A stretch of DNA of 60,714 nt from Candidatus Staskawiczbacteria bacterium RIFCSPHIGHO2_02_FULL_43_16 (GCA_001821935.1 MHOU01000012.1:54070-114783); one strand, 5' to 3'; shown: positions 22,756-60,714, counted from the first letter of the stretch. Numbers and translations: made by a program. Notes: generated from the letters alone by a model not told the origin.

Positions 22756-24315
22756 ATGTCAACAAACTTAACTCCCAAACAAAAACAGATATTAGAATAT
22801 ATAAAAAAACGTATTACAAAGAATGGCTATGCTCCCTCTCTTGGGGAAATAGGGACGAGATTCAAGCTAGTAAAATCAACAATACATCAGCACGTTGATT
22901 CCTTGATAGAAAAAAAATACTTAAACAAATCAGATTATCGGGCGAGATCATTAGAAATCCCCGAAGATAAAAATGTAACTTTTGTAGAAATCCCGCTCTT
23001 AGGCACGATAACAGCGGGCAAACCGATTGAAGCAATCGAAGTTTTAGGAGAAACCATTTCTATTCCAAGCAATGGGGTAGGGAGAATAAAAGACTATTAT
23101 GCATTGAGAGTATCTGGCGACAGCATGATTGACGAAGGAATTTTTGATGGAGATATAGTGGTCCTGAAGAAGCAATCCGTTGCTGAAAATGGGCAAACTG
23201 TGGTTGCTATAATTGATGACAATTCAGCAACTCTTAAAAAAATCTACAAAGAAGAAAGCCGATTCAGGCTACAACCAGCTAATCAAACGATGCTTCCTAT
23301 TTATAGAAGAGAGGTTGAAGTGCGCGGTGTGGTGATAAAAATCATAAGAGATCTTGAAGGTCAAACTAAAAAACAATTTTCAACTTTAGACTTATTTGCT
23401 GGAATAGGCGGATTAAGGCTGGGTTTCGAAAAAGCTGGCTTTAAAACTGTTTTTTCAAATGATTTTGACAAGCAATGCAAGATAACCTATGATTTGAATT
23501 TCAAAGATTCTAAGTTGATAGTAGAAGATATAAACAAAATAGAAATTAATGATCTCCCGGAATTTAGCTTCCTATTAGGAGGCTTCCCCTGCCAGGCTTT
23601 TTCAATAGCTGGATACAGAAAAGGATTTAGAGATGAAAAGGGAAGGGGGAATTTATTCTTCAGACTGGCAAAAATAATAGATGAACGGGAACCAGAGGGA
23701 TTTTTGCTTGAAAATGTTAAAAATTTGAAAACTCACGATAACGGAAAAACTTTTGGAATTATTAAAAAAACCCTCAAAAATCTTGGCTATCACGTAAAGG
23801 CAGAAGTGCTCAATAGTATGGAGTATGGCAATATCCCCCAAAATAGAGAGCGCATCTATATCGTCGGTTTCAAAAATAAAGATCACTACGAAAAATTTAG
23901 GTTCCCCGAACCTGTTGAGCTGACAACTAAAATCACTGATTTGCTTGAAAGTGAAGTTCCAGAAAAATACTATTACAATAAGAAGCCTCTATTCAATAAG
24001 CTTAAGGACTTCATTAAAGAAAGAGGAAAAGTATATCAGTGGCGCAGGAGGTATGTAAGAGAAAATAAGAAAAATGTCTGCCCTACTTTAACGGCAAACA
24101 TGGGAACAGGAGGCCATAATGTGCCGATTATCAAAGATAAAAATGGCATCAGGAAACTAACTCCTTTCGAGTGTGCGCGCATACAAGGATTTCCAGTTGA
24201 TTATAAATTACCCAAAATAGCAGATTCTGCTCTATACAAGCAATTCGGTAATTCGGTAAGCGTGCCAGTTATTGAAGCTATAGCAAAAAATATTAAAACA
24301 GCAATTACATCCTAA
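22756..24315 (+). CDS. Fusion protein: full LexA-like repressor (wHTH + S24 autopeptidase) joined to a DNA (cytosine-5) methyltransferase
   Basis: Residues 1-205 form the LexA part: LTPKQKQILEYIKK...GYAPSLGEIG, cleavage-site-like ITAGKP (A87-G88), GDSM (S123) and ATLKK (K161). Residues from about 208 to 519 form the MTase part: DLFAGIGG (motif I), GGFPCQAFS (IV), ENVKNL (VI), QNRERIYIVG (VIII), RKLTPFECARIQGFP (IX) and QFGNSVSVPV (X). Confidence 0.85.
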   Translation: MSTNLTPKQKQILEYIKKRITKNGYAPSLGEIGTRFKLVKSTIHQHVDSLIEKKYLNKSDYRARSLEIPEDKNVTFVEIPLLGTITAGKPIEAIEVLGETISIPSNGVGRIKDYYALRVSGDSMIDEGIFDGDIVVLKKQSVAENGQTVVAIIDDNSATLKKIYKEESRFRLQPANQTMLPIYRREVEVRGVVIKIIRDLEGQTKKQFSTLDLFAGIGGLRLGFEKAGFKTVFSNDFDKQCKITYDLNFKDSKLIVEDINKIEINDLPEFSFLLGGFPCQAFSIAGYRKGFRDEKGRGNLFFRLAKIIDEREPEGFLLENVKNLKTHDNGKTFGIIKKTLKNLGYHVKAEVLNSMEYGNIPQNRERIYIVGFKNKDHYEKFRFPEPVELTTKITDLLESEVPEKYYYNKKPLFNKLKDFIKERGKVYQWRRRYVRENKKNVCPTLTANMGTGGHNVPIIKDKNGIRKLTPFECARIQGFPVDYKLPKIADSALYKQFGNSVSVPVIEAIAKNIKTAITS

Positions 24316-24779
24316 GCAACGCCTGCCATTGTTTTTAAAATGGCCCAATTTTCTTTATATCGAGCAATTTTTTTAAGCGATACTGATTTGCCCATTTCCG
24401 CCGTGTCTCCAATCGGTATGATATAACACTCACCGCTCCTTCCATCTACCACAAGTATAATATCGCAATCTTTAGTAGAATATTTATATGTCCTTTGAGC
24501 TACGGCTCTATTGATTTGCTGCCCGCTTCTTCCGCCACCCGTAAGACCTACGCTACCACCGGAAGTACCTTTGATTTGTATCCTTAGTAACCTGCTATTG
24601 CCCACATCAATAATCGCATCATATCTGCCATTAGTAACATCTACCCGCGAACACGGAAAACCAGCCTTTATACATCTGCCCACTCCGATCATTTCGTCAG
24701 AGTTGCCATTGATAGTCCTAAAGATCCCCTTATCAATATTTGTTAAATTTTTTGACCATTCATTTCCTTGTTGTGGCAT
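24312..24779 (-). CDS. Small PD-(D/E)xK-like nuclease, candidate cognate restriction endonuclease
   Basis: 155 aa. The pattern E(MIGVGRCIKAGF)...YDAIIDV...LLRIQIKG fits an E...D...(Q)xK nuclease core. Its 3' end overlaps the methyltransferase gene by 4 nt, tail to tail. Confidence 0.45.
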   Translation of the reverse strand: MPQQGNEWSKNLTNIDKGIFRTINGNSDEMIGVGRCIKAGFPCSRVDVTNGRYDAIIDVGNSRLLRIQIKGTSGGSVGLTGGGRSGQQINRAVAQRTYKYSTKDCDIILVVDGRSGECYIIPIGDTAEMGKSVSLKKIARYKENWAILKTMAGVA

Positions 24780-25214: not shown

Positions 25215-27843
25215 TGGGCAGCAGCCGTGGCAATTCAAAGGTGATACTGCCATCCTTTTCATCAATCAATACCCTGCTACCTTCAGCAATCTCGTTGGTA
25301 ACAATTTTAATACTCAATGGGTCTAAAATCAACCGCTGGATAACCCGCTTTAACGGCCGAGCACCTAAGTTTGCATCGTACCCTTCTTTCAAAAGTAGTT
25401 CTTTCGCCTTTTCAGAAATTTTAATGCTGATTTCTTTGGCCGCCAGGCGTTTCTGAACTTTTGCCATTTCCAGGTCTACAATGTTTTTTATTTCCGGCGC
25501 CTTCAAATAATTAAAGATGACAATTTCATCAATTCTATTGATAAATTCTGGCCTAAACTGGTCGCGCAGTGAATTCATCACCTTATCTTTCATTGATTCG
25601 CGTTCGGCTACATCTTTTTGGCTGGAAAACCCGATGGCCGACATTTTATTGATAAAGTCAGACCCCACGTTGCTGGTCAGAACGATAATGGTGTTCTTAA
25701 AAGAAACTAGGCGGCCTTTGGAATCGGTCAGCCGGCCGTCTTCAAAAGTTTGCAGCAAAATGTTAAACACCTCCGGGTGGGCTTTTTCCACTTCATCAAG
25801 CAAAATCACCGAATATGGCCGGCGCCTGACTTTTTCCGTCAGCTGCCCCGCTTCTTCATAACCCACATAACCGGGCGGACTGCCGATAATTTTTGAAACG
25901 GTGTGACGTTCCATATATTCAGACATATCCAGGCGAATCATGGCCTTTTCATCGTCAAACAAAAATTCAGCCAAAGCCCGGGCGGTTTCGGTTTTACCCA
26001 CCCCCGTAGGCCCCAAAAACAAGAAGCTTCCCAGTGGCTTATTTTCCTCGGAAATGCCGGCTCTGGCCCGGCGAATGGCGCGAGAAATGGCGCTAATAGC
26101 CTCTTGTTGGCCAATAACCCGTCGGTTAAGCGTGGCTTCCATGGCTTCCAGTTTTTTAGCCTCTTCGGTAATTAAGCGCATCACCGGAATCCCGGTCCAG
26201 CGTGAAACCACCCGGGCCACATCTTCTTCCGTTACCTCTTCTTTCAAAAAGTGGTGGGTTTTTTGCAGTTTCACCAATTTTTGCTCAATGGCTTTTTGTT
26301 CTTTTAAAAGGGTTGGGATTTTTCCATATTTTATTTCCGCCACCTTTTCCAAATCAGCCTCGCGCTGGGCAATTTCGGTTTGGTTATACAAGGCGTCAAC
26401 TTTCTCCCGGATGCTTTTTATTTTATTAATCAGTTCTTTTTCGGCGTTCCACTTGGCGGAAAGCTCCTTCACCTTTTCTTTTATCTCTGAAAGTTCCTTG
26501 GCAATCACTTTCAGCCGCTTTTCCGAATCTTTTTCTTTTTTTAAGGCCTGTTTTTCAATTTCTAATTTGGTGATTTCCTCTTCATACTTTTCCAATTCCT
26601 GGGGTTCAGACTCAATTTCCAGGCGCAGGGCGCTACCCGCTTCATCCATCAAATCTACCGCCTTGTCCGGTAAAAAGCGGTCGGCAATGTAGCGGCTGGA
26701 AAGTTCCACCGCCGCCTTGATAGCCGAGTCCTTGATGCGCACGCCATGGTGCACTTCATACTTTTCTTTAATGCCGCGTAAAATGGCCGTAGCATCTTCA
26801 ATAGAGGGCTCTTGCACATAAATCGGCTGGAATCTGCGCTCTAATGCTGGGTCTTTTTCAATATATTTTTGGTATTCTTTTAAGGTGGTGGCGCCGATAG
26901 CCCGCAATTCCCCGCGCGCCAAAGCCGGCTTTAACAAATTAGAAGCATCAATCGCGCCCTCGGCCGCGCCTGCGCCAACCAGGGTATGCAGTTCATCAAT
27001 AAATAAAATATATTTGTCCGGAGCCCGGCTAATTTCTTTCAGTAGCGCTTTTATCCGGGTTTCAAACTCTCCCCGGTACTTGGTGCCGGCAATAATCTGG
27101 CCTAAATCCAGCGAAACCACTTCTTTGTTTTTTAAAAATTCCGGCACGTTGCCGCGGGCCACCCGCTGGGCGAAGCCTTCCACAATGGCGGTTTTTCCCA
27201 CCCCGGCTTCCCCAATCAACACCGGGTTATTTTTCGTCCGGCGGGAAATAATCTGCATCAACCGGCGGATTTCATTATCGCGCCCGATAATCGGGTCAAT
27301 TTTTCCGGCCGCCGCAAGATCCGTCAAATTCCGGGTGTATTTTTCTATCACCTGGTACTTTGATTCCGGTTCGGGATCGGTCACGCGCTGACCGCCGCGG
27401 ACCTGCGCCAAAATCTTCAGCACTGCATCATAATTTATCATGGATTTTTCCAGCACTTCCCGGGCCATACTCTTTACATCCAGCAGCCCCAAAAACAAAT
27501 GCTCAACGGAAATAAATTCGTCTTGCATTTTAATAGATTCCTGCCGAGCCTTATCCAGCACCTTAGCCATGTCCTGGGTTAGGTAAAACTGGCCAAACGA
27601 GGTTGGGTTGAGCATGGCGGAAATTTTTGAAATCTGGCTTTCGGTTTTCTTTTTTAAGACTTCATTGTCAACCCCCATTTTCTGCAAGATTGTCAAAACC
27701 AGCGACCCTTCTTGGGTCATCAATGCCATAAGCAAATGCAGGGCATCAATTTGCTGCTGCCCGCGTTCCTGCGCGATTTGCTGGGCTGCCATAATGGCAT
27801 CCTGCGCTTTGTTGGTAAAATTGGCCCCTCCTGGTTGCATCAT
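25183..27843 (-). CDS. clpB: ClpB AAA+ disaggregase chaperone
   Basis: 886 aa with two AAA modules: GEAGVGKTAIVEG / ILFIDELH and GPTGVGKTETARALA / VILLDEVEKAH. Also has a Clp_N domain and a middle coiled coil. Confidence 0.95.
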   Translation of the reverse strand: MMQPGGANFTNKAQDAIMAAQQIAQERGQQQIDALHLLMALMTQEGSLVLTILQKMGVDNEVLKKKTESQISKISAMLNPTSFGQFYLTQDMAKVLDKARQESIKMQDEFISVEHLFLGLLDVKSMAREVLEKSMINYDAVLKILAQVRGGQRVTDPEPESKYQVIEKYTRNLTDLAAAGKIDPIIGRDNEIRRLMQIISRRTKNNPVLIGEAGVGKTAIVEGFAQRVARGNVPEFLKNKEVVSLDLGQIIAGTKYRGEFETRIKALLKEISRAPDKYILFIDELHTLVGAGAAEGAIDASNLLKPALARGELRAIGATTLKEYQKYIEKDPALERRFQPIYVQEPSIEDATAILRGIKEKYEVHHGVRIKDSAIKAAVELSSRYIADRFLPDKAVDLMDEAGSALRLEIESEPQELEKYEEEITKLEIEKQALKKEKDSEKRLKVIAKELSEIKEKVKELSAKWNAEKELINKIKSIREKVDALYNQTEIAQREADLEKVAEIKYGKIPTLLKEQKAIEQKLVKLQKTHHFLKEEVTEEDVARVVSRWTGIPVMRLITEEAKKLEAMEATLNRRVIGQQEAISAISRAIRRARAGISEENKPLGSFLFLGPTGVGKTETARALAEFLFDDEKAMIRLDMSEYMERHTVSKIIGSPPGYVGYEEAGQLTEKVRRRPYSVILLDEVEKAHPEVFNILLQTFEDGRLTDSKGRLVSFKNTIIVLTSNVGSDFINKMSAIGFSSQKDVAERESMKDKVMNSLRDQFRPEFINRIDEIVIFNYLKAPEIKNIVDLEMAKVQKRLAAKEISIKISEKAKELLLKEGYDANLGARPLKRVIQRLILDPLSIKIVTNEIAEGSRVLIDEKDGSITFELPRLLPRAMERIKTKV

Positions 27844-27847
27844 TTTG

Positions 27848-27933
27848 CTAGGGTTTAGGGGTTAGGGTCTAGGGTTTAGCCGTAACGCCATGTTGCGTTT
27901 TTACTATACCCTATACCCTAGACGCTAGACCCT
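27848..27933. repeat. TAGGGT-type palindromic hairpin repeat, copy A (abuts clpB start)
   Basis: Arm ctagggtttaggggttagggtctagggtttag, core ccgtaacgccatgttgcgtttttact, inverted arm ataccctataccctagacgctagaccct. Near-identical to 46151-46235 and related to 42392-42476. Confidence 0.8.
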
Positions 27934-28101: not shown

Positions 28102-28129
28102 CCCCATCACCAGATGGGGTTCTTTTTTT
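28102..28129 (+). terminator. Plus-strand-oriented intrinsic-terminator-like hairpin overlapping the RT1 stop codon
   Basis: ccccatc-acca-gatgggg followed by ttcttttttt on the plus strand. No annotated plus-strand gene lies upstream. Confidence 0.4.
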
Positions 28130-29180
28130 AGAAAAAGTGCTCGCCCAACGCCTCAATGACTTTTTCTCCTAAGCTGCAAGAATCGCAGTGCTTTAACATT
28201 CCATAATATGATTGCAGAGTTTGGTGAAACGAAGATGCTGATATTTTTTCTTCTTTAAAATCGGCTATTTTGGCGTTTAATTTCCTAAACATCCGATGGC
28301 CGGTTTTCACGCGCAACATTTTATGGTGCGGAAAGCTTACATAACCCAAAAAATCAATCCCCTGGTGATATTTTCTGATTTCAATTTTATTGGGATGCAA
28401 AGATAGTTTTAAATTATCCCGTAAAAACGTATCAATCTTTGGAATTAATTCCTTCAGATATGCCACGTTCTCCGACAAAATAACTAAATCATCACAGTAT
28501 CTGATGTAGTACTTTATTTTTAGAGTACGTTTTATAAACTGGTCCAATTCGTTTAAGTAAATATTGGCAAAAATCTGGCTGGTAACATTGCCCAAGGGAA
28601 GCCCCTTGGCAAAACTACTGATAATCTCTTGCAGCAGCCAAAGGACATTTTTGTCACCTATCCGTTTTTTAATCAAATCCATCAAAATATCCTGGTCAAT
28701 GGAATCAAAAAACTTTTTGATATCGCATTTTAAGACAAAGCAATTGCGCGTGTTATTTTTACCAGCTTTATTGGCAAATGCACTAAGCCGGTTGACTGCC
28801 CGATGGGTTCCTTTTTCATCTCTGGATGAGTAAGAATCAAAAATAAAAGATTTGTCAAAAATAAGATATAGCTTTACAAATATCGCGTGGTGCAAAACCC
28901 GGTCTCTTACGGTTGCTTTGTTAATGGCGCGCAGTTTCGGGTCTTTGACGTAAAATGATTCATAGGGCGCGTGGTGATAGATTTTCTTTTTTAATTCTTC
29001 ATGAAGGGCGCGAATTGCTCTTGCATGCTCTTTTTCAAAGAGTATAACATCAAGCTTTTTGGCTTTCCCTTGTTTAAAATAATCCCACGCTGAAAGCAAA
29101 TTTTTAAGCGAAATTATTTCACTGAAAAGATCAAGGCTTTTAACCCCCCCCCCAATCAGTTTTTGGTTTTGAGTATCCAT
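28128..29180 (-). CDS. DGR reverse transcriptase (RT1)
   Basis: RT motifs CDIKKFFDSID, LPLGNVTSQIFANIYLNELD (the SQ signature of DGR RTs) and YIRYCDDLVIL (YxDD). A TR lies directly upstream with a matching VR. Confidence 0.9.
   Translation of the reverse strand: MDTQNQKLIGGGVKSLDLFSEIISLKNLLSAWDYFKQGKAKKLDVILFEKEHARAIRALHEELKKKIYHHAPYESFYVKDPKLRAINKATVRDRVLHHAIFVKLYLIFDKSFIFDSYSSRDEKGTHRAVNRLSAFANKAGKNNTRNCFVLKCDIKKFFDSIDQDILMDLIKKRIGDKNVLWLLQEIISSFAKGLPLGNVTSQIFANIYLNELDQFIKRTLKIKYYIRYCDDLVILSENVAYLKELIPKIDTFLRDNLKLSLHPNKIEIRKYHQGIDFLGYVSFPHHKMLRVKTGHRMFRKLNAKIADFKEEKISASSFHQTLQSYYGMLKHCDSCSLGEKVIEALGEHFF
29144..29153 (-). repeat. G10 homopolymer in codons 10-13 of RT1 (in frame, encodes GGG)
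   Basis: There are 10 consecutive C on the plus strand. The minus strand reads att ggg ggg ggg gtt. Confidence 0.9.
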
Positions 29181-29198
29181 GTTTTTAGTGCGCTATTG

Positions 29199-29228
29199 CC
29201 GCCAGGCGCAACCAAGCGCCTGGCGGCG
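29199..29228 (-). promoter_or_regulatory. GC-rich 12-bp hairpin in the TR1-RT1 spacer
   Basis: gccgccaggcgc-aaccaa-gcgcctggcggc lies between the TR 3' end (29246) and the RT start (29180). Confidence 0.6.
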
Positions 29229-29245
29229 CCCCCTTTACTTAGAGA

Positions 29246-29360
29246 CTTCGGAACGGGCGCGCCAGTTATCATTGCGATTGTCGGGATTGGCGTAGTTGAC
29301 GTTGAACTCGTTGCCGTTGAGATTGGTGTTAGGAACATTGCCGTCGGAGTACCGGGAGCC
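29246..29360 (-). repeat. DGR-1 template repeat (TR1)
   Basis: 115-nt gap-free alignment to 29652-29766. By my count all 24 mismatches are at T on the plus strand, which is A on the minus strand, in the TR. The minus-strand frame is rich in AAC/AAT codons (SRYSDGNVPNTNLNGNEFNVNYANPDNRNDNWRARSE). Confidence 0.9.
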
Positions 29361-29598
29361 CGTTATATTATCTAATTTTATCCGTATCACCGGCAGTTCA
29401 AAAATGTGAATGCCTGGGTTATCTGTGTCCGTCGCACAGGAGTCTTCCGAGCCCGAAGATGCTCGAGAAAATTAGACAAGCAGTTTCCTGTGGCCGGCGA
29501 GGGAAACCAGCCACGGATGCAGTATGGCAAAAAAACAGCGCGAATTCAAGATGGCTTGAAAGCCAATCTTAAACTCGCGCCTTAATTGCTCGTCCTCA

Positions 29599-29618
29599 CC
29601 CAGCCTTGCGAGGCTAGG
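29599..29618 (-). promoter_or_regulatory. Short hairpin with 4-nt loop just 3' of VR1 (candidate DGR target-recognition hairpin)
   Basis: cccagcct-tgcg-aggctagg has an 8-bp stem with one mismatch. It lies about 34 nt beyond the VR 3' end. Confidence 0.35.
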
Positions 29619-29634
29619 TTCGGCCGAGCAACCC

Positions 29635-30432
29635 TCACGACGAGGAAAGCTCTGCGGAACGGGCGCGCCAGCCACCACCGCGACCGACGGGACTGGCGCA
29701 GCCGACGCAGAACTCGCGGCCGTGGAGATAGGCGTCAGGAACACCGCCGCCGGAGTACCGGGAGGCGGGACATAGAGTGTAGTTTTTCACATCCAAGTGA
29801 TTGCCACTCTCATCCCAGCACTTCAACTCGTGAAGTATTCTCTCAATGATGCCCTCAGTCGAAAGCTTGTTGTCCCAGAAATGCCGGGCTGGGAGGTTTT
29901 TGTTCTCCTCGTCGGCTTCCACCCGGTCCCGAACCAAAAGGGCGTACGTACCGTTTTGCGGGTGGCGGTCGTGGTTGGGAATGGCCGCATCCAGATTATT
30001 GGCGTATCGCCAACACTTGAAGTTGGCTTCGCAAACGCTGTACAGCCAATTAAGCGGCTGGACCCTGGATTTGGCATTACCCGTTTTCCACGGCTCCGCC
30101 AATTCCCGCGGGACGATGATCAGGCGGTCAAACCCCTCCTTATGCTGAGGAATTTTGACGCCACCCAAGTCCAGCTTGAAACCGAAATACTTCTTGAAAA
30201 AGTCCTCCTGTTCCTGGAGTTGGCGGTCAAAGGGCGTAAATGCCATGGCCACCACCTGGACTTTAGCTGGCGGCGCTTGGACAATGGCCGACCGTTCAGT
30301 GGGCGCCAGCTCGCCACGAACAAATTGCTCCAGACTCTCAAGAGAGATTTTCTTTTCGCGCATCTTCTTGAGCAGATCCATTTGCAAACCAGCCAATTTG
30401 GCCGCGTCTGCGTCGATGAAGGTGTTCATCAT
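29635..30432 (-). CDS. DGR-1 target (variable) protein
   Basis: 265 aa from the ATG at 30432, which is preceded by AGGAGA. The VR occupies the last 40 or so codons. No signal peptide is recognisable. G+C is visibly higher than in neighbouring genes. Confidence 0.8.
   Translation of the reverse strand: MMNTFIDADAAKLAGLQMDLLKKMREKKISLESLEQFVRGELAPTERSAIVQAPPAKVQVVAMAFTPFDRQLQEQEDFFKKYFGFKLDLGGVKIPQHKEGFDRLIIVPRELAEPWKTGNAKSRVQPLNWLYSVCEANFKCWRYANNLDAAIPNHDRHPQNGTYALLVRDRVEADEENKNLPARHFWDNKLSTEGIIERILHELKCWDESGNHLDVKNYTLCPASRYSGGGVPDAYLHGREFCVGCASPVGRGGGWRARSAELSSS
29652..29766 (-). repeat. DGR-1 variable repeat (VR1) at the C-terminus of the target gene
   Basis: Counterpart of TR1. Encodes SRYSGGGVPDAYLHGREFCVGCASPVGRGGGWRARSA. 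The shared GC-rich 3' end tggcgcgcccgttccg is IMH-like. Confidence 0.9.
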
Positions 30433-30466
30433 TTTCTCCTGAATCAAAAACATAGACCGCCGAATT

Positions 30467-30520: not shown

Positions 30521-30622
30521 TTCCCTCGTATATTCATCTGTAAAAGGGCTGGCTGTAGGCTCATTTGAGCCTTTCATAACTTAATCATATCACAAGCAAG
30601 AACCATTGTCAATAACAACCAC

Positions 30623-30690: not shown

Positions 30691-31050
30691 TTAACTCTTT
30701 TTTAACCGTAAATCAACTATTTCTTCCACATCAGCCACTCGAGATTCCAGATTATCAAATTCTTCTTTACGCACTACATCAACCGCATTCAAATTTATTT
30801 TTTGAACTTCTTTGTGAATTTCTTTGATATTTTTATCCAATCCGTCAATTTTTTCGTCAAATCTTTTGATAATTAAATCCTGAGTGCCTTGCAAAGCAGT
30901 TTTCACCATACCCGCCATAGATTCTTGATTGGCTTCAAGTTTTTTACCCACACTTTTCAATAGGGATCTTTGATTCTCCTTGAATTTAGTATCAAGAATG
31001 TCCACCAGTTCCTTCCTTGTAAAAGTGTTATTTTTTTGTTTTTTCATCAT
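30691..31050 (-). CDS. Small coiled-coil protein, unknown function
   Basis: 119 aa from MMKKQKNN with a heptad-like charged sequence. The longer ORF start at 31116 is considered unlikely. Confidence 0.45.
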   Translation of the reverse strand: MMKKQKNNTFTRKELVDILDTKFKENQRSLLKSVGKKLEANQESMAGMVKTALQGTQDLIIKRFDEKIDGLDKNIKEIHKEVQKINLNAVDVVRKEEFDNLESRVADVEEIVDLRLKKS

Positions 31051-44330: not shown

Positions 44331-44876
44331 TTAAGTTTCTTCGTATTGGGCGAGGCGGTTGATCGGCTCTTCGAGGTCGTCGCCAGTGTCATCACTTAAG
44401 CGATACTCCATTAAGAAGGCATCTTCTCCGCTGTCTTCGTAGAAAGCACGCAGTACCCGGACGGCCCGAAACTCCTGCTTGCAAAAGAACAGCTGCGCCG
44501 CTAGGTTGGTCTCGCGAACCTCCAGGGTGATGCGGGTGCGGCGATGGCCGGACAGCTTGCTGATCATCTTCGCGACCATCTGCGCTCCCACGCCCATGCG
44601 CCGCCAAGCCGGATGGACCACGAAATTAAGGAAATGCAGTTTTCTTTTATGCAGTTCGTAGATCATGAAGCCGACAACCTTTTCGCCGTACTCCGCGACC
44701 ATACTAATGCAGTTGCGCTGGCGCATACAACACAGAAGATCCTCTTCACACCAAGGATGCTCAAAACTGAGCTGCTCGGCTTGCAAAACTTCCGGGTAAT
44801 CACGTCGAATCATCCAGCGAATGTGCACCCGAACCTGTTCCTTTAAGCCCCCCCCCTCATGACGCAGAGCTTCCAT
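44331..44876 (-). CDS. GNAT-family N-acetyltransferase (RimI-like), GC-rich and SD-led
   Basis: Acetyl-CoA motif VHPAWRRMGVGAQMV. GGGAGG lies 6 nt upstream of the ATG. A G9 run lies at codons 8-10. Confidence 0.8.
   Translation of the reverse strand: MEALRHEGGGLKEQVRVHIRWMIRRDYPEVLQAEQLSFEHPWCEEDLLCCMRQRNCISMVAEYGEKVVGFMIYELHKRKLHFLNFVVHPAWRRMGVGAQMVAKMISKLSGHRRTRITLEVRETNLAAQLFFCKQEFRAVRVLRAFYEDSGEDAFLMEYRLSDDTGDDLEEPINRLAQYEET
44848..44856 (-). repeat. G9 homopolymer near the 5' end of the GNAT gene
   Basis: There are 9 consecutive C on the plus strand. The minus strand reads gag ggg ggg ggc tta aag. Confidence 0.9.
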
Positions 44877-46143: not shown

Positions 46144-46150
46144 TTTTTAC

Positions 46151-46235
46151 GAGGGTTTAGGGGTTAGGGTCTAGGGTTTAGCCGTAACGCCGTGTTGCGT
46201 TTTTACTATACCCTATACCCTAGACGCTATACCCT
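46151..46235. repeat. TAGGGT-type palindromic hairpin repeat, copy C (between rpsU and yqeY)
   Basis: gagggtttaggggttagggtctagggtttag-ccgtaacgccgtgttgcgtttttact-ataccctataccctagacgctataccct. Near-identical to copy A. Confidence 0.8.
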
Positions 46236-56054: not shown

Positions 56055-56137
56055 GCCGAGGTGGCGAAACGGCAACCGCACAGCACTCAAAATGCTGCGA
56101 GCTCATGCTCTTGAGGGTTCAACTCCCTCCCTCGGCA
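56055..56137 (+). tRNA. tRNA-Leu (anticodon CAA), type II with long variable arm
   Basis: Acceptor stem gccgagg/cctcggc, anticodon stem-loop cagca-ctCAAaa-tgctg, variable-arm hairpin gagc-tcat-gctc, and T arm gaggg-ttcaact-ccctc. No CCA is encoded. Confidence 0.9.
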
Positions 56138-56142
56138 CTTTT

Positions 56143-56832
56143 ATGCCAAAAGCAAAATTATCAAGCATAAATTTTGATTGGACATCAGATTTGGCCTACG
56201 TAATCGGACTCCTAGCAACCGATGGCTGTCTTTCTAATGATGGCAGGCACATCACCATGCGCTCGTCAGACATCCAACAATTGGAAACCTTTAGAAAATG
56301 CCTAAACATTTCCAATAAAATAGGACAGACCTTCAATGACGGCTGGGCAAAGAAACCGGCATATAGAATACAGTTCGGCAACGTGCAATTTTATAAATGG
56401 CTTTTAGAAATTGGCCTATTTCCAGCAAAAACTTATACCATAGGAGAAATAAAAGTTCCCGATAAATACTTTTTTGATTTTTTACGGGGACATTTGGACG
56501 GAGACGGCTCAATTGTAACCTATACTGATAATTGGAATACTTTCAAGAATCCAAAATATATTTATAAAAGAATTTATATACGTTTTATATCTGCCAGCGA
56601 AAAACATATAGCTTGGTTGGCAGAAAATATTTTCAGATTAAGTAAAATAAAAGGGCATTTACATCAGAACAAGCCAACAAGGGATTTTCAAACTACGAGC
56701 ATATGGGAGATAAAATTTACAAAGAATGATTCTTTAAAATTATATCCCTACCTATATCCATCAAATGACATTGCCTGCTTATTAAGAAAAAGACGAAAAA
56801 TAGAAGATTTCATTAAAACATTAGCCCAATAA
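56143..56832 (+). CDS. Free-standing double-motif LAGLIDADG homing-endonuclease-like protein
   Basis: LAYVIGLLATDGCL and FLRGHLDGDGSI. The ATG at 56143 lies 5 nt after the tRNA. The longer ORF start at 56092 falls inside the tRNA. Confidence 0.8.
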   Translation: MPKAKLSSINFDWTSDLAYVIGLLATDGCLSNDGRHITMRSSDIQQLETFRKCLNISNKIGQTFNDGWAKKPAYRIQFGNVQFYKWLLEIGLFPAKTYTIGEIKVPDKYFFDFLRGHLDGDGSIVTYTDNWNTFKNPKYIYKRIYIRFISASEKHIAWLAENIFRLSKIKGHLHQNKPTRDFQTTSIWEIKFTKNDSLKLYPYLYPSNDIACLLRKRRKIEDFIKTLAQ

Positions 56833-58638: not shown

Positions 58639-59674
58639 CTATTTCCATGGCTTATCAATCCCAAAGCCGGCAATAAGCTCAAGAAGTTCCTGCTTCACTA
58701 AAAATGCATTACAATGCTTGAGTATGCCAAAGTATGATAGTAACGTTGCATCAAGAGACTCTTTTTTAATTAATCCACTGCGAAAATCAATTAACCAGGA
58801 TTTTACCCTTTTAAACATCCTCTTTTTCGTTTTTACCCTTAAAACAGTAAAATAAGGAAAACTGACATAGCCTAAAAAATCTATCCCTTGGTGATACTTA
58901 GAAATCGTCACCTTATTGGGATGAAGTGACATTTTCAAACGGGTTCTCAAAAAAATATTTATCCTTTGGATCAAATCTTCCAAATACTTTTTGTCTTCGG
59001 ACAAAATAACAAAATCATCGCAATAACGGATATAATACTTTACGCGCAACGTATGCTTTATAAAACCATCAAGTTCCGCGAGGTAAATATTGGCAAATAA
59101 TTGGCTCGTAATATTTCCCAAGGGCAAACCTGCCGAAAAACTTTTAGTGATCACTTCTATGAGCCATAAAGATTGCTCATCTTTTACTCGTTTCTTGATA
59201 AGGTTTAATAAAATAGCCTGGTCAACATTGTCGAAAAACTTTTTAATATCACATTTTAAAACAAAACAATTCTTGGTATTGTTGTTACTTTCTTTCTGGA
59301 AAAATTCATGCAAACGGCGCACAGCCCGGTGCGTACCCTTGCCAATCCTACAAGAATATGAGTCATAAATAAACGTCTTATCAAAAATAGGGTACAATTT
59401 CCTAAATAACGCATGATGAACCACCCGGTCACGCACACAAGCTTTGTTTATTTTCCGCAGCTTGGGATCCTTAACATAAAACGTCTCGTAACCGCCATGA
59501 GAGTATGTTTTACTTTGAAGTTCTTTTTGGATAAAGTTTAAATTATTCTTTAAATTCTTTTTGAATGCAATAACATCCGGTTTTTTAGTTTTGTCCAGCT
59601 CAAATTCCGCCCAGGCATTTTTAATATTTTCCCAACTAGTAAGCCCCCCCCCCCATTTGTTTCAAAATTTTCAT
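58639..59674 (-). pseudogene. DGR reverse transcriptase RT2, frame broken by a G11 homopolymer (intact if the run were G10)
   Basis: RT body 58639-59436: CDIKKFFDNVD, LPLGNITSQLFANIYLAELD and YIRYCDDFVIL. The upstream 59437-59643 continues the same frame (LTSWENIKNAW...FYVKDPKLRKINKAC). The ATG at 59674 is in the +1 frame relative to it, across the 11-G run. Confidence 0.8.
59644..59654 (-). repeat. G11 homopolymer at codons 7-11 of RT2
   Basis: There are 11 consecutive C on the plus strand. Confidence 0.9.
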
Positions 59675-59691
59675 GGATTTTTTAATTAACA

Positions 59692-59717
59692 CAAAAGGAG
59701 TTTTTCAACTCCTTTTG
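59692..59717 (-). promoter_or_regulatory. 11-bp hairpin with GAAA loop in the TR2-RT2 spacer
   Basis: caaaaggagtt-tttc-aactccttttg. The loop reads GAAA on the minus strand. Confidence 0.55.
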
Positions 59718-59725
59718 ATGTGGAG

Positions 59726-59840
59726 ACTTCGGGACGGACACGGGCATTCGGATTGGCATAGTTGGGATTGTCGTTGTTGACATGGACCCTGCCCGGATTG
59801 GCGTCGAAGTAAGCGACGTTGCCATTGCGAAAGCGCGAGC
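59726..59840 (-). repeat. DGR-2 template repeat (TR2)
   Basis: 115-nt gap-free alignment to 60391-60505 with 15 mismatches by my count. Fourteen are at minus-strand adenines of the TR. The frame encodes SRFRNGNVAYFDANPGRVHVNNDNPNYANPNARVRPE. Confidence 0.9.
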
Positions 59841-59904
59841 CCATCATATTGCATAGTTACATCCATGTCACCGACCGCACAATAAGCGTACGCTGTCTGG
59901 GTTG

Positions 59905-60173
59905 GGAGTGCGAAACGGAATTGGCATTGTTTTAGAAACCAAAAAATGAGATGATTTTCAGGCGCGGCGAGGAGGCATAGCCTTGTGCTACGCCGACAAA
60001 GCCGCAACGCAGAAATCAGCCATTTTTTGGTTTCCCTCGGGGCGAGCGAATTAAGGCAAGCTTCTTCGTTGCTCATCGAAAACGATGCGCAGAGGCATCG
60101 ATTTCTTCTTCGCGCCTTGAATCTTGCCCTAATTCGCTACCGCTAAAACAATGCCAATTCCGTTTCGCACTCC
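59905..60173 (+). mobile_element. Nested-palindrome (MITE-like) element, copy E2, inserted in the DGR-2 VR-TR spacer
   Basis: A perfect 31-nt inverted repeat (59905-59935 / 60143-60173) encloses hairpins aaaccaaaaaatg...cattttttggttt and agcgaattaaggcaag...cttgccctaattcgct. The paralogous DGR-1 spacer is continuous across this point. Confidence 0.6.
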
Positions 60174-60308
60174 TCACTCTGTCCGTAGCAGAGAAGTTTT
60201 TTGAGTCTTTGATACTCATTATAATTATGCAAGCAGTTTCCTGTGGCAAACCATTTCTTGCTTATTGGGAAAACTATTTACCACGTCAGTATGTTACATA
60301 AAAAAAGA

Positions 60309-60337
60309 GCGCTTTGCAACAGATTGTTGCAAAGCGC
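60309..60337 (-). terminator. Intrinsic terminator of the DGR-2 target gene
   Basis: The minus strand reads gcgctttgcaaca-atc-tgttgcaaagcgc followed by tcttttttt, 17 nt after the stop at 60354. Confidence 0.75.
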
Positions 60338-60353
60338 ATGAACGTTAGCCAAC

Positions 60354-60714
60354 TTACGCCTTCGCTCCGCTCGGCTCCAGTTGGCGGGAAACTGCGGGAC
60401 GGACACGGGCAAACGGATAGGCATAGTCGGGACCGTCGCCGTTGACAAGGACCCCGCCCGGATTGGCGTCGAAGACAGCGACGTAGCCATAGCGAAAGCG
60501 CGAGCGGGTCCGGGTCAACTTCTCGAGGTTCAAGAGCTGTTTCTTGCCGGTGGCAAGATAGACTCCCAAATCAAGAAGCAAGCCGTCGCGCAGGATGGGG
60601 TCGTTGTAGCCTTCCACCCCATCCTGGAATTTCTTCCATCGCTGGTTGGCAGACTCGTTGCTCGGCTCACCGGTCAACGACCGGGTAAAGCCGAGCAGAT
60701 ACGGGCCTTCTTCT
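60354..60714 (-). CDS. DGR-2 target (variable) protein, 5'-truncated by the window edge
   Basis: The open frame runs to the window end. VR2 lies near the C-terminus. GC-rich like the DGR-1 target. Confidence 0.75.
   Translation of the reverse strand, partial: EEGPYLLGFTRSLTGEPSNESANQRWKKFQDGVEGYNDPILRDGLLLDLGVYLATGKKQLLNLEKLTRTRSRFRYGYVAVFDANPGGVLVNGDGPDYAYPFARVRPAVSRQLEPSGAKA
60391..60505 (-). repeat. DGR-2 variable repeat (VR2)
   Basis: Counterpart of TR2. Encodes SRFRYGYVAVFDANPGGVLVNGDGPDYAYPFARVRPA. Confidence 0.9.

Follow-up and report, generated by a model that had tools for sequence, protein, structure and literature searches.

The 60,714-nt stretch of Candidatus Staskawiczbacteria bacterium RIFCSPHIGHO2_02_FULL_43_16 DNA analyzed here (hereafter, the window), which makes up 60.7 kb of a contig no shorter than 310 kb, very probably harbors a genuine diversity-generating retroelement (DGR) of the Patescibacteria (Candidate Phyla Radiation, CPR; Parcubacteria-type) clade, as judged from its sequence features. 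The element, DGR-1, comes from an uncultivated bacterium found in groundwater, is located on the minus strand and is composed of a target gene that ends in a variable region (VR), a template repeat (TR) and a reverse transcriptase (RT) gene, RT1. A previous sequence-only reading of the region described a complete DGR with the signature of mutagenic retrohoming. Our analysis supports this signature, as every sequence-level hallmark named is present. The element is complete with respect to its target/VR, TR and RT, whereas the accessory gene avd is absent from the window.

On the minus strand, the TR (29246-29358) can be aligned gap-free to the VR (29652-29764) at an offset of 406 nt; the two differ at 24 of 113 positions, and all 24 mismatches fall on TR adenines. 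On the plus strand, each of these positions is a T in the 29246 copy, which corresponds to an A on the coding minus strand. From TR to VR, A is replaced by G 18 times and by T and C three times each, which affects 24 of the 31 TR adenines; the probability that 24 mismatches randomly placed among 113 positions would all coincide with an A is 1.2e-18. The gapless alignment with 24 adenine-directed mismatches, which had been proposed from the sequence alone together with a pairwise alignment tabulated by TR base as a check, was thus borne out over 113 nt. The proposed span of 115 nt was slightly too long: the statement that all mismatches are T in the 29246 copy is correct for 29246-29358 and fails at position 29359, where C is opposed to G and the homology ends, such that 115 nt contain 25 mismatches, one of them at a non-adenine position. 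The TR reads in an AAY-rich frame with 11 Asn codons, close to the approximately 12 that had been estimated for its AAC/AAT-rich frame. The VR encodes residues 230-268 of the 272-codon target open reading frame (ORF) and makes up the last 40 codons of the target, which agrees with the C-terminal position previously assigned to it. In the VR frame, 30 of the 31 TR adenines are located at codon position 1 or 2, and the 17 codons that differ between TR and VR are all non-synonymous (17/17, with 0 synonymous).

Both repeats share an unmutated GC-rich 3′ end, as had been observed before. This IMH-like segment, CTGGCGCGCCCGTTCCG, is 17 nt long with 76% G+C and is located at 29655-29671 (minus strand) in the VR and at 29249-29265 in the TR, where it is identical; the TR/VR homology stops 3-6 nt beyond it. 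By analogy with the Bordetella phage model, CTGGCGCGCCCGTTCCG may constitute the initiation site of mutagenic homing (IMH). A window-wide repeat search recovered the TR/VR pair plus a second, similar pair at the window end. As assessed by eye, the segment that includes the target gene, VR and TR (29200-30450) is far more G+C-rich than the RT gene and the surroundings (window mean, 43%).

RT1 (28128-29180, minus strand) encodes an intact, in-frame protein of 350 aa that carries LGNVTSQIFANIY, LPLGNVTSQIFANIYL and YCDD, with the motif-4 pattern [LIV]GxxxSQ present as LGNVTSQ. The protein matched the Pfam profile RVT_1 (7.7e-24), and its best match in the PDB was the Bordetella phage RT, bRT (8ub7_A, E = 9.8e-42, residues 15-325). 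Group II intron RTs (1e-20), retron-type RTs (~1e-17; 4e-17) and defense RTs ranked far behind. The motifs and the leading position of 8ub7 confirm the assignment to a DGR-type RT that had been made from an LGNxxSQ-type motif and YCDD, and the profile search against RT classes, which had been named as a further check, placed the DGR RT far ahead of the group II and retron RTs. The TR, previously described as lying directly upstream of the RT gene, ends 65 nt before the RT1 start codon on the same strand.

The relatives of RT1 were represented by the best 80 loci from species-representative genomes and 80 more from metagenomes. Of these 160 CPR loci, whose RTs are 47-71% identical to RT1, 147 are unique and add up to 885 kb. 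The best 80 genome-derived relatives are nearly all labelled as Patescibacteria/CPR metagenome-assembled genomes or as unclassified, and a few records carry a Gammaproteobacteria label; Staskawiczbacteria, Wildermuthbacteria and Moranbacteria are named among the RT relatives. Using a script search, we found an adenine-biased TR/VR pair in most of the relative loci with sufficient flank. More than 100 relatives carry the same type of cassette, and the element order common to them is target/VR, a spacer of ~300-500 nt, TR and RT. No match to an exact DNA pattern with variable gaps, representing the 5′ end of RT1, was obtained in the Joint Genome Institute (JGI) metagenome contigs, a collection from which the window's organism is absent, and a second metagenome scan returned relatives of no more than 71% identity to RT1. 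Roux et al. (2021, PMC8144416) described one DGR clade ('DGR clade 2') that is restricted to Patescibacteria and has targets without known domains.

The target gene (29635-30432, minus strand) encodes a protein of 264-272 aa, depending on the start codon (30453, 30432 or 30429). The ORF 29635-30453 comprises 272 codons, while the starts at 30432 and 30429, located just 3′ of a GGAG, are equally possible, and public calls give 264 or 272 aa. No signal peptide or transmembrane segment is evident in the protein. It has no known domain: the Pfam, NCBIfam and PDB-profile searches gave no match, and Pfam was also empty on all 27 family members, the 27 being the homologues found. The target family also serves as the target in many related DGR cassettes, and CPR DGR targets without recognizable domains have been reported (PMC8144416; PMC5758913), with which the target of DGR-1 agrees. 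The AlphaFold2 model built from the family alignment reached a predicted local distance difference test (pLDDT) score of 82, with a core above 90. Upstream of the gene, a sigma-70-like promoter candidate (30584-30612, minus strand; TTGACA, 17 nt, TG-TATGAT) with 11 of 12 consensus matches is, by consensus match only, the best site in the region and may function as the target promoter.

Several RNA elements are predicted between the VR and the RT gene. The region 29520-29651, immediately downstream of the VR, folds at -66.4 kcal/mol (z = -8.1). Folding places a long imperfect hairpin ~20 nt downstream of the VR (29586-29631, minus strand), analogous in position to the hairpin/cruciform found downstream of the VR in phage BPP-1. 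Folding and sequence reading additionally point to an intrinsic terminator of the target gene (29528-29581, minus strand), with a 19-bp stem followed by U7. A candidate promoter of the TR RNA (29521-29549, minus strand) overlaps this terminator and consists of TTGAAT (29549-29544), 17 nt and CATACT (29526-29521); -10-like boxes occur at the same place in the related loci L001, L008, L094 and L128. The TR RNA would probably start near position 29515.

The TR is preceded by a structured leader of ~150 nt (29370-29514, minus strand), for which covariation was observed in 27 related leaders. The leader begins with a hairpin (29514-29490) and contains the boxes CCACAGGAAACTGCTTG (29493-29477) and GGTGATACGGAT (29391-29380). 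Its long-range helix P1, of 10 bp, pairs 29477-29468 with 29379-29370 (95% paired, 56 double-sided compensatory cells) and is accompanied by the helices P2 (29467-29444, 99% paired), P3 (29439-29423) and P4 (29416-29390, 96% paired), all on the minus strand. In the controls, partners slid by 1-3 columns paired at 31-65%, and none of 500 column shuffles reached the observed pairing. The leader, which holds the invariant box GGAAACUGCUUG, is kept in avd-bearing and avd-less members.

On the other side of the TR, 19 nt downstream of it, a 12-bp GC stem-loop is located at 29198-29227 (minus strand; -36.3 kcal/mol, z = -5.0). A stem-loop lies within 25 nt of the TR end in 22 of 23 related cassettes, with or without avd; the sequences differ, and a U-run often follows. 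An Avd-binding stem-loop just after the TR has been described for 207 of 278 DGRs (bioRxiv 10.1101/2023.10.23.563531), at the same position as the one at 29198-29227, which is retained here although Avd is absent. When Rfam was searched at the gathering threshold, the whole window gave a tRNA only. At the E-value threshold, the sole match in both VR-TR-RT regions of the window was to RT-4, on a GAAA-tetraloop hairpin after the TR of a second element (TR2, see below), and was rejected as sub-threshold (25 vs 73.5 bits). Fifteen related loci gave no relevant family, and the leader and the other DGR RNA elements are covered by no Rfam family.

We propose that the target gene would be transcribed from its own promoter up to the strong terminator, and that a separate RNA would be initiated near 29515 and comprise the ~150-nt leader, the 113-nt TR and the stem-loop, probably continuing into the RT gene. 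As in other members of the family, the RT would copy the TR into cDNA with misincorporation opposite adenines. The cDNA would then replace the VR, anchored at the identical GC-rich 3′ end, and up to 31 adenine positions could be re-randomized. The element itself derives from the usual CPR layout TR-(avd)-RT by deletion of avd; it would operate Avd-free or, with lower probability, be assisted by a helper from another locus.

The second element, DGR-2, has the same avd-less layout and is located at 58639-60714 on the minus strand. Its variable region, VR2 (60387-60505), lies inside a target ORF that is cut off by the window end and whose family is not that of target 1. TR2 (59722-59840) spans 119 nt and shows 16 mismatches with VR2, 14 of them at TR adenines. 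In the RT gene, RT2, a run of 11 G (G11) separates the sole start codon (59675) from the RT body, and gene callers give a 265-aa fragment (58639-59436). The TR2 leader carries a 269-nt insertion (59905-60173), with which the VR2-TR2 spacer measures 547 nt instead of ~295 nt. This insertion has 31-nt perfect inverted repeats at its ends and nested inverted repeats of 20 and 14 nt, gave no Rfam match and looks like a miniature inverted-repeat transposable element (MITE) or a structured insert. A different palindromic insert was observed in the leader of the related locus L095.

The accessory protein of a DGR is Avd (or HRDC, MSL or CH1); accessory proteins are present in ~74% of DGRs and are not universal. 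In ~90% of the relatives of RT1, a divergent bAvd gene encoding 116-123 aa (PF22296, E = 5e-16 to 5e-17) is located in the interval that separates TR and RT, on the opposite strand. In these avd-bearing relatives, 425-500 nt separate the TR end from RT residue 31, and 105-155 nt do so in the avd-less loci, with 155 nt in DGR-1. The short, avd-less layout was found in DGR-1 (W_RT1), DGR-2 (W_RT2), L001, L008, L094, L095 (on the same contig as L062) and L128. In a neighbor-joining tree of the genome-derived RTs, W_RT1, W_RT2, L001, L008 and L062 form one clade, which is sister to the avd-bearing L002 and L007; L094 and L128, which come from the metagenome scan and lie outside the tree, were grouped with them by their short layout and their closeness to RT1. 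The RTs of the avd-less clade are 55-71% identical to RT1 (58% for RT2). The adenine share of the TR/VR mismatches in the seven avd-less loci is 24/24, 14/16, 15/15, 12/12, 10/10, 11/13 and 17/17. Wu et al. (2018, PMC5758913) reported the layout TR-(avd)-RT ('B3') for 90% of CPR DGRs and the accessory-less layout TR-RT ('A1') as a known class that makes up 29% of their curated set.

A putative relic of the avd 5′ end, corresponding to its first ~14 codons, PPPNQFLVLSIHVF, is located at 29145-29186 on the plus strand, where tblastn aligned residues 8-21 of the L002 Avd protein (57% identity, E = 0.9). The match is weak by itself; synteny supports it, as the avd 5′ end of the relatives overlaps the RT 5′ end across the same tract. 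Because this relic remains and the element nests inside an avd-bearing lineage, the loss of avd, of which the rest is deleted in DGR-1, is demonstrably secondary. The identity of only 55-71% between RT1 and the other RTs of the clade indicates that avd was lost once, long ago, and the avd-less elements stayed maintained after this loss and, judging by their mismatch pattern, in use. The small ORFs near DGR-1 gave no match to bAvd/PF05635. A 118-aa coiled-coil ORF upstream of the target gene (30691-31050), with weak four-helix-bundle/coiled-coil matches only (E > 1e-3), was considered as an Avd substitute and was rejected, since it is absent from every related cassette.

Several points weigh against DGR-1 as an operating DGR that dispenses with Avd. 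The variable domain of a DGR target typically adopts a C-type lectin or Ig-like fold, and such a fold is unassigned here: Foldseek comparison of the target model with the PDB and BFVD gave nothing with E < 0.6, and C-type lectins (3whd, 3vyj and a herpesvirus lectin) appeared only among the non-significant rows. No avd was found in the 60.7-kb window by tblastn with two related Avd proteins, the 14-aa relic at E = 0.9 aside. The only DGR studied by biochemistry cannot do without Avd, and this protein is essential in phage BPP-1 (PMC5758913). At the consensus level, the VR is identical in the four assemblies that cover it (4/4; L081, L082, L083 and L086), and the TR/RT region is identical or differs by 1-2 bases in seven assemblies. 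Since the consensus VR is identical in four assemblies, and these are consensus assemblies only, the present-day diversification of DGR-1 is unproven. Some short public contigs are broken in or near the TR: L084 and L085 start at 29214, L087 starts at 29346, and L138 starts inside the G run at the RT 5′ end described below. Contig breaks near the TR, the post-TR stem-loop or the poly-G run are compatible with assembly-graph branching at repeats or variable sites and prove nothing.

One alternative is that DGR-1 is active but relies on a helper, Avd or another, whose gene lies in a part of the genome beyond the window, a possibility that we consider unlikely. The retention of the post-TR stem-loop, which binds Avd in the Bordetella system, would be in line with it, a trans-acting factor would be economical with two DGRs in one genome, and the larger part of the contig lies beyond the 60.7 kb examined. 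Nevertheless, the profile search of Wu et al. (2018, PMC5758913) found no stray avd in genomes whose DGRs lack avd, and the flanks of the seven avd-less relatives, inspected over 2.5-4 kb to each side, contain no avd.

Alternatively, DGR-1 could be a fossil that was once active and died after the avd deletion, with its RT and TR decaying and the adenine-only mismatches left as a frozen record. The absence here of a protein that BPP-1 requires and the identical VRs of all covering assemblies fit this explanation, as does the frameshift of the sister gene RT2 in five assemblies. We regard it as quite improbable nonetheless, given that RT1 is a full-length open frame with every catalytic motif and that the TR and VR show no non-adenine difference in 113 nt. 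The seven avd-less elements, with RTs 55-71% identical to RT1, keep their RT bodies, A-biased pairs, covarying leader and poly-G run; the conservation of these features in such diverged elements argues for purifying selection long after the loss of avd. The accessory-less 29% of the curated set speaks against the fossil as well.

The RT genes of this lineage share a further feature, a homopolymer at their 5′ end. In RT1, a G10 run (29144-29153, minus strand) forms codons 10-13 (GGG GGG GGG G) in frame with the ATG at 29180. The homologous run in RT2 is the G11 at 59644-59654, as a result of which the RT body is not in frame with the sole start codon (MKILKQM-GGG); RT2 has no alternative start. 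The window contains three G/C runs of at least 8, and 0.13 runs of at least 9 would be expected by chance. Of the 83 G/C runs of at least 8 that occur in the 147 unique relatives, 75 are located at exactly the RT 5′ end, with lengths of 8 in 4 loci, 9 in 28, 10 in 33, 11 in 9 and 12 in 1. Approximately half of these relatives thus carry the run at this place, where the other strand has the 5′ end of avd.

Most avd-bearing relatives have their avd and RT genes in a head-to-head overlap that spans the run, and the run is read as Pro-Pro-Pro in one gene and as Gly-Gly-Gly in the other. The avd ATG is the reverse complement of an RT His codon (HNxFE), and the RT ATG is the reverse complement of an avd His codon (P-[IL]-x-H). 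The two frames are locked in this way, and therefore one run length puts both genes in or out of frame. The phase between the gene bodies in 51 unique overlap loci is in frame in 11, one G too long in 26 and in the third phase in 14, a distribution that differs from uniform with a chi-square of 7.4 (p ~0.025, uncorrected for kinship). The assembled state is out of frame in ~78% of the run-bearing relatives, and in the avd-less clade, two members are in frame (RT1 and L062) and five are one G too long. The RT bodies are open over more than 300 codons in all but one. In approximately 15 loci ('class B'), the run precedes the RT start codon by 13-26 nt; in these loci, the avd start probably follows closely on the run, which would place the run in a divergent leader. 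A sister clade has no run, and three of its members (L024, L063 and L068) have a (GT)n repeat at the avd-RT junction, a second type of simple-sequence repeat at this place.

Two readings of this region were rejected. A conserved 'MNQRN' upstream of the tract was first taken for an RT N-terminus under protein-level selection; it is better accounted for by the reverse complement of the conserved avd N-terminus, in which NGG corresponds to a CCN Pro codon and ATG to a CAT His codon. A Shine-Dalgarno-like role of the run for a downstream start also does not fit, as no in-frame start follows it in RT1 and RT2 or in the remaining 'class A' loci.

Within this lineage, the poly-G run is kept at the nucleotide level and at one specific position, and its frequency, reproducibility and conservation are too high for an assembly artefact. 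With moderate confidence, we propose that the run is a length-dependent gate on the expression of RT and, where avd exists, of Avd, at the DNA or RNA level. Slipped-strand phase variation in DNA, RNA-polymerase slippage and ribosomal slippage/frameshifting could each be the mechanism; transcriptional slippage at long homopolymers is known from endosymbiont poly-A tracts and insertion sequence (IS) elements. In the fuller form of this proposal, which we hold to be evenly balanced between true and false, a single G:C run (mostly 9-10 bp) in the avd/RT overlap would serve as a switch or throttle that keeps the mutagenic machinery off or low in most cells. The G10 of RT1 and the G11 of RT2 would then be an 'on' and an 'off' state side by side in the window, to which we give the same middling credence. 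The gating argument is that the RT bodies, the TR/VR pairs and the leader RNA are under selection in spite of the out-of-frame prevalence. As the run was kept after the loss of avd, it would, if it is a gate, act on RT in its own right. An in-frame counterpart of RT2 is recorded in the protein P0040 (run SRR3989338), a 344-aa G10 version that begins MKILKQMGGGLTSWENIK and falls in the 90%-identity cluster of the RT2 product; it differs from RT2 by 3 aa, two of which are common to L174.

The gating proposal has its own counterevidence. The RT1 run is G10 in 7 of 7 public assemblies and the RT2 run is G11 in all five (the window, L088-L090 and the strain variant L174), and run-length variation comes from the single record P0040, which is known as a protein alone. 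In the search for near-identical locus pairs with different run lengths, only duplicate records with identical runs turned up. None of ten hypothetical one-G-shorter, in-frame RT proteins of the relatives was found in a collection of 15 billion proteins, by an exact full-length look-up that is uninformative.

The constant run lengths among same-strain assemblies and the missing in-frame versions would also be expected if the poly-G run were functionless, i.e., a relic of the avd/RT overlap whose out-of-frame states are homopolymer assembly errors, and homopolymers are indeed error-prone in sequencing. We find this explanation very unlikely. An uninterrupted run of at least 8 G is present in 75 loci whose RTs are 47-71% identical, although Gly and Pro codons are four-fold degenerate. 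The out-of-frame state of ~78% comes from many independent studies and assemblers, with identical recurrence in independent assemblies. Additionally, the avd-less clade retains the run although it is free of half of the coding constraint that is supposed to preserve it.

Another run of this kind, G9, is located at 44848-44856, in codons 7-10 of an in-frame GNAT acetyltransferase ORF (44331-44876, minus strand; Acetyltransf_1, 6e-14). It is the third and last long homopolymer of the window, it shares its context, G9-CTTAAAGG, with the runs of the RT genes, and the acetyltransferase gene is visibly more G+C-rich than its surroundings. This gene may be another contingency locus.

That the region is no DGR at all and instead holds a group II intron, retron or defense RT beside a duplicated gene fragment is hardly conceivable: in NCBIfam, which is without a DGR model, RT1 gave sub-threshold matches only, the best being a group II RT/maturase (149 vs a cut-off of 300 bits), and this stands against the mismatch pattern (P = 1e-18), the PDB ranking with the DGR RT 21 orders of magnitude ahead of the next class, the absence from the region of an intron RNA, retron ncRNA or other Rfam family, and the same cassette in more than 100 relatives.

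DGR-1 resembles the known Patescibacteria DGRs ('B3', PMC5758913; 'clade 2', PMC8144416) in its RT lineage, element order, domainless target, ~300-nt VR-TR spacer, TR leader and post-TR stem-loop, and it shares its target family with many of them. Unlike most of these elements, it has no avd, and its TR lies 65 nt from the RT start instead of ~400 nt. With the accessory-less 'A1' DGRs (PMC5758913), it shares the composition of target, TR and RT without an avd, HRDC, MSL or CH1 gene; unlike 'A1'/'Lineage 3', it is secondarily avd-less and nested in an avd-bearing lineage. The DGR of Bordetella phage BPP-1 (mtd-avd-TR-brt; 8ub7; PMC6182149) has in common with DGR-1 the adenine-specific TR-to-VR flow, the VR at the 3′ end of the target gene, the IMH-like identical GC-rich 3′ end and the hairpin after the VR. 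It differs in that the host of DGR-1 is cellular, Avd is missing, the target bears no likeness to Mtd, a homopolymer lies at the RT start and the TR-RT spacer is 65 nt, compared with 140 nt in BPP-1.

The poly-G run is comparable to the poly-G/C tracts of phase-variable genes in Neisseria, Campylobacter and Haemophilus (PMC2192423, PMC6321876). As in those loci, a run of 9-11 is located in the first ~15 codons, orthologues occur in all three frame states, a stop codon follows soon in the shifted frame, and two near-identical alleles appear to be one G apart (G11 vs the in-frame P0040). In contrast to them, the gated gene would be a mutagenic RT, in most relatives one tract sets the frames of two genes (avd and RT), and switching is a proposal here. 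The searchable literature gave no account that links DGRs with homopolymers, phase variation or slippage at RT or avd genes.

The neighbors of DGR-1 encode housekeeping functions, namely ClpB, an HtrA-type protease, glycosyltransferases, HisRS, SHMT and topoisomerase I; the element is thus chromosomal and not obviously phage-borne. A 91-nt direct repeat, 96% identical between its copies at 27843-27933 and 46145-46235 and rich in TAGGGT/ACCCTA inverted motifs, is located directly upstream of clpB and of a YqeY-family gene and may serve both genes as a regulatory region or be a small mobile repeat. At 22756-24779, a 519-aa fusion of a LexA DNA-binding domain, an S24 peptidase and a C-5 cytosine methyltransferase adjoins a PD-(D/E)XK endonuclease (155 aa); this unusual regulator-methylase is presumably part of a restriction-modification system. 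The tRNA gene detected with Rfam (55 bits, 83 nt) lies in 56055-56832 and is directly followed, with a formal overlap, by a 246-aa ORF with a weak LAGLIDADG homing-endonuclease match.

As a DGR, the element adds little to what is known, since CPR bacteria are already recognized as enriched in DGRs and earlier surveys have covered elements from these groundwater datasets; the core element is quite possibly already listed in such surveys. Our analysis goes beyond this in the secondary loss of avd in a seven-member clade, the homopolymer shared by avd and RT that is mostly out of frame, and the covarying TR leader. In the prototype DGR, Avd grips the RNA, and the avd-less clade offers a natural test of whether DGR reverse transcription can work without Avd, and in what way. 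The leader of ~150 nt provides a ready RNA family with which DGR RNAs in CPR genomes could be found and delimited. If the poly-G run is indeed a gate, its description would be the first of any regulatory principle behind DGR activity in these organisms; such a gate would connect contingency-locus switching with targeted hypermutation and would explain why many CPR DGR RT and avd genes are annotated as truncated or frameshifted.

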